The translations under genes were made by a program, and so were the position numbers. Shown piece after piece: positions 20,105-61,340 of a DNA stretch of 64,000 bases. The notes beneath the pieces were generated by a model. The model did no database searches. It saw only the letters and a program-made list of their open reading frames with translations, and had not been told where the DNA came from. The number at the start of each line of letters is the position of its first letter. Within the stretch, counting starts at the first letter, position 1. Source of the stretch: Candidatus Binatia bacterium (GTDB lineage: Bacteria; Desulfobacterota; Binatia; UBA9968; CAXXLF01); NCBI GenBank assembly GCA_963664015.2, contig CAXXLF010000001.1, positions 96,001-160,000 of the forward strand, given 5' to 3'.

Positions 20105-20181
20105 GGCGGTGTAGCTCAGATGGTTAGAGCACGCGGCTCATATCCGCGGCGTCGCAGGTTCGATTCCTGCCACCGCCACCA
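20105..20181 (+). tRNA. tRNA-Met (CAT), probably elongator
   Basis: GGCGGTG/CACCGCC acceptor stem, anticodon arm CGCGG-CTCATAT-CCGCG, GGTTCGATTCC T-arm, CCA end. Confidence 0.93.
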
Positions 20182-43637: not shown

Positions 43638-43714
43638 GCGGGTGTAGCTCAGTTGGCTAGAGCGTATGCTTGCCAAGCATAAGGTCGCCGGTTCGACCCC
43701 GGTCACCCGCTCCA
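43638..43714 (+). tRNA. tRNA-Gly (GCC)
   Basis: GCGGGTG/CACCCGC acceptor stem, TATGC-TTGCCAA-GCATA anticodon arm, TCCA end. Confidence 0.95.
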
Positions 43715-47300: not shown

Positions 47301-47660
47301 TCACTTCTCGCTTGAATCCGCCATACCTAAGCATCCTTTTTCCCCCCTATCCCCTTCTTTACCCTTAACCAAGAAGAGCCTCGTACGCTGCGGGATTTCC
47401 CGCCTCACGTACTCCCACCCGGCCTTGGAAATTGAAACAAGCTCATAGATCCCACGGGGAATCAGCTTTTTCCCGCTCATATCACTGCAGGTGGTCAAGG
47501 AGGCGTGATCGATCCACTGTTTGTGATGGCTACAATTGCCCCTCAAGGGGCGACGGTTCGGTAGCCGCGGCTGAAAGTAGAGACAGTAGCTACAGGTGTG
47601 TTCTGCAGACCGCCTACTCCCCTGTCGGGGCTTCTTTGACTGTTTATTCATGCCCCTCAT
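47301..47660 (-). CDS. Small Cys-motif protein (C-x2-C-x16-C-x14-C; possible HiPIP-like Fe-S protein)
   Basis: CSYCLYF...GNC...TTC; first ATG abuts the TAG of the upstream flavoprotein. Confidence 0.6.
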   Translation of the reverse strand: MRGMNKQSKKPRQGSRRSAEHTCSYCLYFQPRLPNRRPLRGNCSHHKQWIDHASLTTCSDMSGKKLIPRGIYELVSISKAGWEYVRREIPQRTRLFLVKGKEGDRGEKGCLGMADSSEK

Positions 47661-48812
47661 CTAGAAGTAACGCCACAGGTACCATTTCTCGAAACCTAGC
47701 TTTGCCCAGTAGATCATCCGCGATGGACCCCAGGACCGGGATTCGGTTGCCCCAAAAGGTGGCCATCCTCGAGGATAAATCGTTCGATTTGCTGCAGCGC
47801 GACCCGCGCCACATGCGAGCAGTCATATGGTATGGAGCCTCAGGGTCGTCGGATGGCCCCGCCCTGTAGCCTTCACCGCCAGGTTGTGGGCGACGACGTC
47901 GGCCCCCTGGTGGGCCACCATCCCGGCCTTCGACGCCGGCATATCGGCACAATCCCCTATCGCATAGACGTTGTCCCATTTTGTAGATAGGGTTTCATAA
48001 TCGACCCTCACGCCGTTCTCCGTATCCGCCAGGCCGCAGTCTCTCAAGACCTGCGCCGGTCTATGGGGCGGGATAAGAAACAGTAGATCGTAATCGATCT
48101 TGTACCCGTATAGGCCCAAGACTGTCTTTTTTTCAGGGTCAATGGAATGAACGACGAATTCGTAGTTCTGTTTGATCTTTCTCGCTTTACTCTGCGCGTC
48201 CATCCAGACCACCGGGTCATGGGCCTCCCCGGCGGGCTCAGGATCACGAGTAAAGTATTCGATCTCGACCCTGTCGCGTCGCCCAGCGTCACGATAATAG
48301 CTATCAAGGAGCCATTGGGTTTCATATGGGGCCGGTGGGCACCGGTAGGGTCCCAACGGAATACCAACAACGATTCGGCCTTCCTTGAAATTCTGCAGCG
48401 CCGGTTGAACTCGTAGCGCCGCATCCATCTCCCAGGCGTGGTGCGCACCTTCACTGAATCCCGGAATCATATCGGGCCTCGTCTGCAGACCCAAGGCAAC
48501 AACCAGGTGGTCGTAAGGAACCTTCTGACTGTCCAGCACCACTTCCTGGCGACCCGGGTCGATACCCAGTATCTCCGCTTGAATAACCTTGACCCGACGG
48601 CGTTCCAGTATCCGCAACTTCCTTTTAAGGTCCTCGGGCCTGCGTTGACCAAGCATCAGAAAGAGAAACGAGGGGGTAAAGATATGCTCTTCCCGCCGAT
48701 CGATAAGGATCACATCATGCTTGCCCCCCAGTGAGCGGCCCAGCTTGGTGGCCGCGGCAAGACCCCCGATCCCCCCACCTAAGATAACGATTTGCGCCCG
48801 TCCGTTCATCAT
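47661..48812 (-). CDS. SQR/FCSD-family FAD-dependent oxidoreductase, predicted selenoprotein (Sec at TGA 47823-47825, 383 aa)
   Basis: GGGIGG, YRCPPAPYE, YAIGDC, SKAG; past the TGA the frame continues LLACGAGRAA...PSRMIYWAKLGFEKWYLWRYF*, the family C-terminus. Confidence 0.82.
47793..47822 (-). promoter_or_regulatory. Putative bacterial SECIS hairpin
   Basis: After UGA: CUGCUCGCA-UGUGGCGCG-GGU-CGCGCUGCA; 9-bp stem including G-U pairs, GGU apical loop 18 nt from the UGA. Confidence 0.65.
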
Positions 48813-49202: not shown

Positions 49203-50171
49203 CTAACGTAGAAAGGTGTCTTCCTGCTCCAAGCCCGCTACCGCTTCCTTTATGGCCAGAGTGGTAGGCACCTTGTCTCCCAAGAGCCCAATCTGCCGGA
49301 AGAACTGGCCAATTTGAGCATGGTCCCGTGGCGTCACCTGGGTGTAAGGTCGTACCGGATCACCGATATCAACGCCAAAATGCCGCATTGCCGATTTCAT
49401 GATTGGCGGCAGCCCGTACGCCCCCCATTTACCCGGGAACAGGGAAAAACACCTCTGCCAGTATCTAGCGTGATCCAGGTCGCCGGCCCTAAAGGCCTTG
49501 ACCACCTGGGCGCCGATACGGGTCCCCGGAGGCGGCATCGTGGCACCCGATCCTCCCATCATAAGTGTCGAGAGGAGAGGCTGCATGGTTGTAAAATAAT
49601 GTCCCTTCCCGGCCATTTCGATCTGCTCCACAAGCCGTGTAATCTTGGTAATGTCACGGGAGCTTTCTTTAAAATACTGAACATTGGTCAGCTCGCTGAG
49701 TTTAACAAAGGTCTCGATGGGAGGGTCCGCTCCCGGCCCTGGGTTGTGATACGCAACCACGGGCAACGGGCTGGCGGAGGCGACTTGAGTGAAGTACTCT
49801 ACGATTTCCGCAATGGTGGGCTGCTGCCCCCAAGGTCTCAGCTGCATCAACACCTGGGCCATATCCGCCCCGATGGTGGCGGCATATTCGGCTAATTCGA
49901 TCACTTCATGAGGGGAAGGATTCGAGCACCCGGCTAGTACGGGGACCCGTTTCCCGACCATTTCAGTTCCGATACGAAGCAACTCCTTACGTTGCTCGAG
50001 GGTCAACATGGTATATTCGGCAGCCTCGACAGCAGCAATGGAGATGGCGTCACAGTCCGCTACCAGAAATTCAATTTCATGTTCCAACGCCTTGTAGTTG
50101 ACGCGATCGTCTTCTCCAAAGGGCGTTAGACAGGCTCCAATAATGCCGTTGACTGGCTTCTCCAGTGGCAT
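49203..50171 (-). CDS. Dihydrodipicolinate synthase-like class I aldolase family protein
   Basis: LTPF, YHNP and FKESS (Schiff-base Lys); usual GTTGE motif replaced by VEAAE. Confidence 0.85.
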   Translation of the reverse strand: MPLEKPVNGIIGACLTPFGEDDRVNYKALEHEIEFLVADCDAISIAAVEAAEYTMLTLEQRKELLRIGTEMVGKRVPVLAGCSNPSPHEVIELAEYAATIGADMAQVLMQLRPWGQQPTIAEIVEYFTQVASASPLPVVAYHNPGPGADPPIETFVKLSELTNVQYFKESSRDITKITRLVEQIEMAGKGHYFTTMQPLLSTLMMGGSGATMPPPGTRIGAQVVKAFRAGDLDHARYWQRCFSLFPGKWGAYGLPPIMKSAMRHFGVDIGDPVRPYTQVTPRDHAQIGQFFRQIGLLGDKVPTTLAIKEAVAGLEQEDTFLR

Positions 50172-50197
50172 AGGATCTCTCCTCTCGTATCGAACGA

Positions 50198-50857
50198 CTA
50201 ACTAAGAATTTCGGCGACGATGCGAGCGTGGGCCGCATCGCTTCCTTTAACCTTAAGGGGAAATGCAAGGATCCGATTTTTTATCCCAACAATTCGACCC
50301 AGATTAGTCACATTCTCGGCGATGAGTACGTCGTGACCCAGCAACATCTTGTGTACAGGGAAATTAAAATCTTTTGGTCGTAGAGGTGTAGGCAGGTCTA
50401 CCGTAATACAATCGATTCCGAATAGCTTGACGCCTCGATCCACAATCCACCGGGCCGCATCAACGGAAAGATAAGGGTGGATATTGTAATCGGGGCTTTC
50501 AAATTTATCGTCCCAGCCCGTATAGAGCATCAGGATGTCGCCCCGGTTGACGGTAACGCCGGATTCCTCCAGTTCCCTTGCCGTTATTTCCTCCCCACCC
50601 TTTTTTTTGACGGCAATGACTGCCCCCGGTCCCATAAAGGAATCCAAAGGAAGTTCCTCTATGGACTTTCCTTCGGCGACGATATGAACCGGTGCGTCCA
50701 CATGGGTTCCTGCATGGCACGGCAGCGACATCACTGTCACGTTTAAGGCGTGCCCCTCCTCCAGGCTAAAGCATCGCTGCACATGGACATCCGGGAGGAC
50801 GGGGATCTTTGGCATCCCATCGTAAATCAAACGTGAAAGATCAACCATCTCGGTCAT
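50198..50857 (-). CDS. Cyclase family metal-dependent hydrolase (kynurenine formamidase-like)
   Basis: HAGTHVDAPVH, GID, H..LL and ENV motifs. Confidence 0.9.
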   Translation of the reverse strand: MTEMVDLSRLIYDGMPKIPVLPDVHVQRCFSLEEGHALNVTVMSLPCHAGTHVDAPVHIVAEGKSIEELPLDSFMGPGAVIAVKKKGGEEITARELEESGVTVNRGDILMLYTGWDDKFESPDYNIHPYLSVDAARWIVDRGVKLFGIDCITVDLPTPLRPKDFNFPVHKMLLGHDVLIAENVTNLGRIVGIKNRILAFPLKVKGSDAAHARIVAEILS

Positions 50858-50874
50858 GAGACTTAATAACCTCC

Positions 50875-51615
50875 TTAGCGCCCATTCCGCCAAGCGGCGT
50901 ATAGGGGATCCAGATCGATGAAGGCACGCTTGATACCGTCGAATGCCAGCCAAAAAATGTCCAGTGTTTTCTGTACTGCGACCCTCACCTGTTCCTGCTG
51001 AGCGTCATCCACAGCATACTTTCTCACGGCCTCGGGCCCAACGCGCATATGTTCCTCGTCCACGCCCATGTGGAGAGTCCAGTATCGAAGATCGTCCGAA
51101 TCCATTGTGAATCCATAGTGATGGATTAGACCGTGAACGATCTTACGCATGCGTAGGCTCGCCGTACCTTCGAGACAAAAGCCTTGGCTGGCGTATAGCT
51201 CAAGCCAAGTCCTCTGGTACATCAGTAGCTCCCGCCAATCCAAAAAAGCCTGTGTCTCGGGTAGCGGCTCCACACGATCCAGTTCTTCCCTGGAATAGCC
51301 AAGCACTCCGGCAAATCGTATGAAAAGACCTTTGTGACTGTCCGTCCCTGTTATTTCTCCGGTTGCTTCCTCGATCACATTCTCAATCCACATCTTTTCC
51401 AAAATCTCGTCATCGGGACAACGCCCCAACATGGCAGCAATGGGCTTTGGAAAGGGTTTAGGGAAAAAAAGGTAGAACTGACCGACAAAACCCTTCAGGG
51501 CCTCGCGATTCATTTCTCCCCTTTCAATCATCCCAATCACAGGATGATCCTTTGAGTGTTTACGAAGAACCATTCCCTGGATTTCTTGGACGAATTCCTC
51601 ACTGGATTGCGGCAT
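50875..51615 (-). CDS. Heme-oxygenase-like diiron redox enzyme (PqqC/CADD/TenA superfamily)
   Basis: HP, ENVIEE...H, LE and YWTLHMGVDEEH diiron ligand pattern. Confidence 0.82.
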   Translation of the reverse strand: MPQSSEEFVQEIQGMVLRKHSKDHPVIGMIERGEMNREALKGFVGQFYLFFPKPFPKPIAAMLGRCPDDEILEKMWIENVIEEATGEITGTDSHKGLFIRFAGVLGYSREELDRVEPLPETQAFLDWRELLMYQRTWLELYASQGFCLEGTASLRMRKIVHGLIHHYGFTMDSDDLRYWTLHMGVDEEHMRVGPEAVRKYAVDDAQQEQVRVAVQKTLDIFWLAFDGIKRAFIDLDPLYAAWRNGR

Positions 51616-61253: not shown

Positions 61254-61340
61254 GCGAAAGTGGCGGAATTGGTAGACGCGCAGGATTCAGGTTCCTGTGG
61301 GGTAACACCCGTGGGGGTTCGATTCCCCCCTTTCGCACCA
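61254..61340 (+). tRNA. tRNA-Leu (CAG)
   Basis: GCGAAAG/CTTTCGC acceptor stem, CAGGA-TTCAGGT-TCCTG anticodon arm, long variable arm, ACCA end. Confidence 0.95.

Follow-up and report, generated by a model that had tools for sequence, protein, structure and literature searches.

Gene Layout at the Locus

The window analyzed here is a stretch of 64,000 nucleotides (nt) from the genome of a Candidatus Binatia bacterium (NCBI GenBank assembly GCA_963664015.2, contig CAXXLF010000001.1, positions 96,001 to 160,000 of the forward strand); coordinates given below refer to this window unless another contig is named. Its minus strand carries, at positions 47661-48812, the coding sequence of a flavoprotein of the sulfide:quinone oxidoreductase/flavocytochrome c sulfide dehydrogenase (SQR/FCSD) family, which is interrupted by an in-frame TGA. 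The open reading frame (ORF) as listed runs from the ATG at 48812 to this TGA (47825-47823) and encodes 329 amino acids (aa) with the C-terminal end RLHTI, and the public annotation also ends the protein at residue 329. Beyond the TGA, the same frame continues for 53 further codons (47664-47822; LLACGAGRAAANRTIYPRGWPPFGATESRSWGPSRMIYWAKLGFEKWYLWRYF) without any other lesion up to a TAG (47663-47661), which directly abuts the ATG (47660) of a small downstream ORF. Translation with the TGA read as selenocysteine (Sec, U) yields a protein of 383 residues with U at position 330. The original prediction, which regarded this gene as a hidden selenoprotein with Sec at the second catalytic cysteine position, had described the in-frame TGA, the open tail of 53 codons, and the TAG abutting the next ATG, and this arrangement was borne out by retranslation. 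Further landmarks on the same strand are the GGGIGG dinucleotide-binding motif of the flavin adenine dinucleotide (FAD) domain (48762-48779, residues 12-17), the codon of Cys158 within the motif PYRCPPAPYE (48339-48341), which would be the partner redox cysteine, the TGA itself (47823-47825), and a hairpin resembling a Sec insertion sequence (SECIS) shortly after it (47793-47813).

TGA also serves as an ordinary stop codon in the window, terminating 12 of the 33 mechanically called ORFs of at least 250 aa, and it is the terminal stop in 11 of 30 orthologs of the SQR-like gene itself. A global reassignment of UGA was therefore rejected.

Conservation of the TGA and of the Tail

Orthologs of the gene are found in 53 of the 61 genomes of the same order, if the window's own genome (G000) is included, or in 52/60 without it; they occur in all of the 14 genera (14/14) and share protein identities of 67-100%. 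Each of the 53 orthologs contains exactly one internal stop, which is always a TGA, and three of them are truncated where their contigs end. When species-representative genomes were scanned, 49 loci were recovered, which likewise carry TGA at this column in every case (49/49). The two sets overlap and combine to 79 loci with 65 distinct stretches of 75 nt around the TGA. The TGA, the tail, and the core of the hairpin are kept in 79/79 of these orthologous loci, which is far more than chance would produce, and a TGY codon occurs in none (0/79), as had been anticipated for close orthologs of a genuine selenoprotein. The tail is complete except in one locus (L088), whose contig ends 25 codons past the TGA. 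In another locus (L091), the frame is shifted about 15 codons before the TGA; this is the sole frameshift among the 79 loci and may be an assembly error, and the rest of the frame is undisturbed there, with the TGA kept as well.

The recorded proteins reflect the interruption. Among the best 120 matches in a protein database of 5.8 billion entries, 118 cover 80-86% of the query, and the six that were aligned all end in ...LHTI. The two full-length proteins among these 120 matches contain Cys (P0010) or Asn (P0041) at the column of the TGA.

A codon-level analysis of 64 distinct orthologs shows that most residues of the tail are invariant while the synonymous third positions use all available bases, as exemplified by the third-position counts (n = 64) of the codons for P+17 (T11/G13/C25/A15), G+32 (T13/A19/G16/C16), and R+51 (T19/G15/A10/C20). 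Invariant residues combined with free synonymous sites are the signature of a translated and selected peptide, and the tail is predicted to be both because its residues stay fixed while its synonymous sites vary. The immediate surroundings of the UGA are constrained as well, the preceding codon being AUA in 64/64 orthologs and the following base being C in 64 of the 65 distinct stretches. The fixed AUA and the following C would fit a recoding signal.

Contigs of four sequencing runs were also aligned to the gene. A marine metagenome contig from a separate study (X8 record 10) contains the TGA unchanged in independent DNA. The near-identical sequence from run X4 may itself be the source and therefore does not represent an independent observation. 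A marine metatranscriptome contig of 205 nt aligns at 47973-48177 with four differences, but is not counted as evidence of expression or read-through, because the library may contain DNA and the contig stops short of the UGA.

Protein Family, Catalytic Residues, and Predicted Structure

The read-through product matches the Pfam families Pyr_redox_2, with 81.3 bits over a cut-off of 26.1, and FCSD_central, with 31.3 bits over a cut-off of 27, and the two dinucleotide-fold domains that bind FAD in the SQR/FCSD family are recognized by Pfam, by the GGGIGG motif, and by Foldseek. The motif lies inside the Pyr_redox_2 match, and over an alignment of 74 rows its residues G12 and G17 are invariant, with G14 and G16 nearly so. 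The closest solved relative by sequence is human mitochondrial SQOR (E-value 1.7e-34), followed by FCSDs and by bacterial and archaeal SQRs, to all of which the identity amounts to 20-24%. Cys158 aligns with the Cys of the sequence VKCAGAP in human SQOR (chain index 161, corresponding to Cys201), and the TGA/U330 position with that of YTSCPLV (chain index 339, corresponding to Cys379), the numbering being the chain index plus the 40-residue offset of the construct. The column of the TGA is occupied by Cys in 49 of the 51 full-length relatives lacking Sec, the other two containing one Asn and one Ala, and the column of Cys158 is Cys in 73 of the 74 aligned rows; both catalytic columns are conserved to at least 90% over the 74 rows. 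Hence, the proposed alignment of the TGA with the conserved catalytic Cys of the family stood up to the comparison. The motif RCPP.PYE around the first Cys is one that we take to be FCSD-like.

An AlphaFold2 model of the read-through protein, built from the 74-row alignment, shows a predicted local distance difference test value (pLDDT) of 94.0 and a predicted template modeling score (pTM) of 0.91. The modeled tail consists of strands at residues 327-335 (which hold residue 330), 338-345, and 357-364, followed by an aromatic-rich C-terminal helix at residues 365-382 (MIYWAKLGFEKWYLWRYF). As judged from this model, the tail is an integral part of the SQR/FCSD fold, all of its elements would be missing in a product of 329 residues, and it also aligns with the tails of the Cys-containing relatives. 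The aromatic C-terminal helix is compatible with a monotopic membrane anchor in the model.

Fold comparison by Foldseek yielded template modeling scores (TMq) of 0.85 for human SQOR, 0.84-0.86 for the SQRs of Aquifex and Acidithiobacillus, and 0.84-0.86 for FCSD. Human SQOR (PDB 6OI5, 6OI6, 8DHK) is thus the closest solved relative by sequence and fold, with Cys201 and Cys379 at the positions of C158 and U330, but it contains Cys instead of Sec, shares 24% identity with the window protein, and extends further at its C-terminal end, the solved chains comprising 405-418 residues. The flavoprotein subunit of FCSD (PDB 1FCD, 3VRD, 5N1T) resembles the window protein in its fold and in the FCSD_central match over the cut-off, but it contains Cys where the window protein would have Sec.

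The Hairpin Downstream of the UGA

The transcript following the UGA can form a hairpin consisting of a 5' arm UGUGGCGCG (47813-47805), the loop GGU (47804-47802), and a 3' arm CGCGCUGCA (47801-47793), which amounts to 9 base pairs (bp) including two G-U pairs. The 9-bp stem and the GGU loop are present as had been noted, but the distance of 18 nt that had been assigned to the hairpin is that from the UGA to the apical loop, whereas the stem already begins 9 nt after the UGA. Across the orthologs, the conserved part is confined to the inner 6 bp (47811-47806 with 47800-47795), which agree with the 6-bp consensus stem found by RNAalifold in alignment columns 24-29 with 35-40, where 388 of 390 cells are paired and two are broken. 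Eleven one-sided changes occur in the stem. Its third positions vary only between C and U opposite G, which retains the pairing. Hardly any variation is seen at the fourfold-degenerate third positions of the stem (n = 64), with C62/T2 at G+5, C63/T1 at R+8, and C61/T3 at A+9, whereas those of the loop and flanks (A+6, G+7, A+10, A+11, and T+14) vary among all four bases. This contrast points to a constraint on the RNA in addition to that on the encoded peptide. The apical loop opens with an invariant GG in the orthologs, and the named structure pairs 83.8% of the cells, compared to 24-68% in slid registers. The sole Cys-containing member of the clade (P0010) has the sequence FEPGK where the Sec-containing forms have the hairpin-encoded xGAGR, another detail that would fit a recoding signal.

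In bacterial SECIS elements, a hairpin follows closely on the 3' side of the UGA, and its apical loop, at 16-37 nt from the UGA, opens with a G. The hairpin described here resembles the type known from E. coli fdhF in lying within the coding sequence right after the UGA and in having a loop that starts with GG at 18 nt, but it differs in lacking a bulged U or a GGUC loop and in the short length of its conserved stem (6 bp). It is predicted to be a SECIS-like element for recognition by SelB.

Sec Machinery of the Genome

The genome of 3.5 Mb, which is assembled in two contigs and 97% complete, encodes the full set of components for Sec incorporation, as identified by matches over the curated cut-offs for selA (606 bits), selB (409 bits), selD (373 bits), and tRNA-Sec (74 bits), so that the machinery expected for a selenoprotein was indeed located. 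The three protein genes are clustered on contig 2 of the genome (1306534-1312057), and the tRNA-Sec gene follows about 10 kb further (1322535-1322625); the four loci are labeled L001, L002, L009, and L012. The selD gene itself codes for a selenoprotein with an own in-frame TGA (KAAG-U-AAKLGP). The UGA of selD is followed by a different, weaker-looking hairpin, and no shared SECIS motif can therefore be derived from the two genes.

Relation to Known Sec-Containing SQR

Sec-containing SQRs are listed in a 2026 review of the prokaryotic selenoproteome, in an entry citing the deep-Sep study (PMC13188914). In two genomes of Desulfosediminicola, that 2025 study predicts an NAD(P)/FAD-dependent oxidoreductase with Sec, and it reports TGA-containing as well as Cys-containing homologs elsewhere (PMC12013277). 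The kind of enzyme is already catalogued as family NF049943 (type III SQR, selenoprotein subtype), and no new category is opened by the window protein, because a Sec-containing SQR was predicted in 2025. The novelty considered in the original prediction is therefore limited to a divergent branch that scores below the NF049943 cut-off, whereas a Sec-SQR family with the same HxxU motif had been catalogued before.

The window protein matches the NF049943 profile over its full length (residues 7-378 on positions 2-384 of the 406 in the profile, E-value 6.6e-72). Both share an HxxU motif near profile position 331, which reads HTIU here and HATU in NF049943. A TGA falls into the column of U330 in all five members examined (5/5) of the seven that bear one. 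One member (P0204; 525.3 bits, residues 2-330 on profile positions 1-330) is recorded in the database with the end ...DGHAT, just before this column. Nevertheless, membership of the window protein in NF049943 was rejected, since it reaches only 242.6 bits (236.5 in the genome search) vs. the curated cut-off of 525. It shares 32-34% identity with the members, lacks the insertion after the Sec and the longer C-terminus found in them, and ends about 20 profile positions earlier. The hairpins also differ, as NF049943 has an 8-bp stem (CGAGAAGG/CCUUCUCG) whose GGUC loop begins 25 nt downstream of the UGA, while the window gene has a GC-rich stem of 6-9 bp with a GGN loop starting at 18 nt. Among 301 sampled genomes of the phylum, 18 contain NF049943, with 20 matches in total, seven with one TGA and 13 without, and no holder belongs to the class of the window's genome. 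Thus, Cys forms outnumber Sec forms in NF049943 (13 vs. 7 of 20), whereas the window branch has the Sec codon in 79/79 loci.

Phylogeny and Distribution

A quick maximum-likelihood tree was calculated from the columns before the Sec position of the 74 rows, with support from the Shimodaira-Hasegawa-like approximate likelihood ratio test (SH-aLRT) only; its root is arbitrary and many of its forks are open. The window branch, comprising 20 Sec rows together with P0010 and P0041, forms one clade with an SH-aLRT value of 100 and a long stem of 0.91. The NF049943 member P0204 is placed outside of this clade among Cys forms, and Cys forms stand between the window branch and NF049943. The topology favors more than one origin of Sec at the catalytic column, as far as can be judged from these sequences.

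The window clade includes just two full-length database proteins, of which P0010 has a Cys at the column, whereas P0041 has an Asn and thus no redox residue there (LHDLNFISTGPGH); they could represent a reversion and a loss or change of function, respectively. Two further proteins with about 31-33% identity to the query, P0185 (...KGYGY) and P0232 (...DGAAS), end one residue before the catalytic Cys column and occupy two further places in the tree among Cys forms. From their protein ends, they may be candidates for additional Sec lineages.

A search of 300 other genomes across the phylum, a sample in which the same order was represented by one genome and the same class by eight, yielded no member of the branch at a query E-value of ≤1e-100 (0/300), and among the genomes searched the branch is confined to one order. 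The submitters' labels of the 49 records read Binatia in 20 cases, followed by "Deltaproteobacteria," Syntrophobacterales, Myxococcota, and others, but these labels are regarded as unreliable, because several of the records duplicate loci from genomes that belong to the window's order. The literature searched yielded nothing that joins Binatia or Binatota with selenocysteine, although Table S2 of the deep-Sep study could still list homologs from this branch.

Neighboring Genes

Upstream of the SQR-like gene and on the same strand (49203-50953, minus) lie an ORF of 251 aa, which presumably belongs to the cyclase family, and a gene of the dihydrodipicolinate synthase (DHDPS) family (322 aa, Pfam 110 bits). 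When five ORFs of the window were compared across the 49 loci, the cyclase-family and DHDPS-family neighbors were kept in 44/49 and 46/49 loci, respectively, at about 70-90% identity. They are separated from the SQR-like gene by a gap of about 390 nt and show no visible functional link to it; the idea of a common operon was rejected on these grounds, and no pathway is indicated by the neighbors.

The small downstream ORF that begins immediately after the TAG of the SQR-like gene (47301-47660, minus) encodes a Cys-rich protein of 119 aa without any match in Pfam or NCBIfam. Homologs are present in 18 of the 49 loci, where they follow the SQR-like gene immediately or at a further distance of about 1.2 kb, and share the pattern C-x-x-C ... 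G-N-C-x-x-H ... T-C-S-D/E-M-S and a tail of the form GIY...W.Y.RR...R.RLF.VK. From its sequence, the ORF may code for a small metal-binding protein of a family that is unassigned in Pfam and NCBIfam. Elsewhere in the window, three tRNA genes on the plus strand (20105-20178, 43638-43711, and 61254-61337) are the sole Rfam matches at gathering score.

Discussion

The observations are best explained as a whole by an intact selenoprotein gene that codes for an FAD enzyme of the SQR/FCSD fold with a Cys158-Sec330 redox pair, a reading to which we assign a probability of roughly 85%. The decoding of the UGA at 47825-47823 as Sec is the part held with the greatest confidence and appears nearly certain from the TGA shared by all orthologs, its position in the catalytic Cys column, and the alignments with SQOR and NF049943, while translation of the tail is indicated by the synonymous-site pattern, the AlphaFold2 model, and the tails of the Cys-containing relatives. 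The reaction itself is less clear, and oxidation of sulfide (or of persulfide or polysulfide) with a quinone as acceptor would, by analogy, have a chance only a little better than even.

Several points weigh against this interpretation. No compensatory, two-sided changes were found in the stem of the hairpin (0), and all 500 shuffles tie with the observed values, so that this control does not discriminate. The fold energy is unexceptional for a GC-rich stretch (z = 0.37), with 120 of 200 shuffles folding at least as well, and an Rfam search of the whole window at gathering score retrieved three tRNAs only and no SECIS family. The argument for an RNA structure is therefore built on the frozen synonymous sites, because neither fold energy nor covariation gave a signal; conservation of the hairpin as a structure is well supported by this synonymous-site pattern, but not proven by covariation. 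In addition, U330 and the read-through protein are known here from sequence and models, and the substrate, acceptor, and membrane binding are deduced from homology to solved SQRs at the low identity given above. Finally, the window protein stays far below the NF049943 cut-off and has the shorter C-terminus already described.

The alternative that survives best is a selenoprotein other than an SQR, in which the Cys-Sec pair would act on another substrate or with a non-quinone acceptor, for example in persulfide or polysulfide reduction, in chemistry of the CoA-persulfide type, or in the trafficking of selenide or selenium. The distance of the protein from both the solved SQRs and FCSDs (20-24% identity) and the members of NF049943 (32-34%), its short C-terminus with a single helix, and a weak similarity, below the threshold, to TIGR03169, the name of which links it to SelD (57.4 bits vs. 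a cut-off of 310), would all agree with such a function, and the presence of Sec in every locus, compared to the Cys majority in NF049943 (13/20), suggests a stricter chemical need. However, the top matches by sequence and by fold are all SQRs or FCSDs, both catalytic positions and the CPPAPYE-type motif are retained, and the neighboring genes indicate no other pathway, and we therefore consider a different function possible but rather doubtful. Much less probable is the insertion of an ordinary amino acid, such as Cys, Trp, or Gly, at the UGA by near-cognate decoding or via a mischarged tRNA-Sec, without any involvement of selenium. The sequence data reveal read-through of the codon as such and not the identity of the inserted amino acid, and a UGA followed by C is a weak terminator context, which applies to 64 of the 65 distinct orthologs together with the invariable AUA codon before it. 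Yet the genome contains the complete Sec machinery, the conserved hairpin lies at a SECIS-like distance with a loop starting with GG, the redox-Cys column is a classic site of Cys/Sec exchange at which NF049943 has both forms, and TGY would be the safer code for Cys but is used in 0/79 loci; on balance, this makes ordinary read-through very improbable. That the gene is a nonsense pseudogene with a disabling TGA and a decaying remnant as tail, as the gene callers stopping at the TGA and the 329-aa protein of the public annotation might suggest, is practically precluded by the identical TGA in 79/79 loci at 67-100% protein identity, by a tail without other lesions and with invariant residues over free synonymous sites, and by the occurrence of just a single frameshift in 1/79 loci (L091), which is located upstream of the TGA.

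For an SQR-like selenoenzyme, a mechanism can be drafted from that of human SQOR. There, the resting enzyme contains a Cys379-S-S-S-Cys201 trisulfide, which is opened by sulfide to form two persulfides; the persulfide at Cys201 then engages FAD, while the solvent-exposed persulfide at Cys379 hands its sulfane sulfur to an acceptor, and the FAD adduct is subsequently attacked by the Cys379 thiolate, whereby the bridge is restored and FADH2 is generated for the reduction of quinone (PMC11039317). In the window protein, the UGA would be decoded by SelB and tRNA-Sec under direction of the GC-rich hairpin with its GGN apical loop. Because of its aligned position, Sec330 would take the role of Cys379 as the solvent-side member of the redox pair. 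The sulfane sulfur to be released would be bound to this residue as Se-S(H), and the selenolate left behind would go on to attack the adduct of the Cys158 persulfide with FAD, closing the bridge and leaving the FAD reduced. Selenium would be expected to speed up both of these steps, since a selenolate is a better nucleophile as well as a better leaving group. The reduced FAD would pass its electrons on to quinone, and the enzyme would be held on the membrane by its aromatic C-terminal helix.

A more speculative extension, which we put forward with considerable reserve, is that Sec arose independently and repeatedly in SQR-like enzymes, namely in the window branch, in NF049943, and perhaps in the lineages of P0185 and P0232, and that its seemingly obligatory presence in the window branch hints at a reaction inaccessible to the Cys enzyme. 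Such a reaction might involve a mixed Se-S bridge, a selenopersulfide as carrier, or even a selenium compound as substrate.

Within the known kind of Sec-SQR, the window branch apparently constitutes a divergent and unannotated lineage in which Sec is obligate, as predicted from its sequences. For a whole order of uncultured bacteria, mostly labeled Binatia, the enzyme is presently recorded as a stump of 329-331 residues, which is devoid of a catalytic residue, three strands, and the C-terminal helix. A second "exception" annotation model is warranted, because the curated NF049943 model misses the window branch. The branch would also represent a natural and fully fixed exchange of Sec for Cys at the residue that carries the outgoing persulfide in human SQOR, and together with NF049943, in which Sec and Cys forms are mixed, it may offer a comparison for assessing the benefit of selenium in sulfide and persulfide chemistry.

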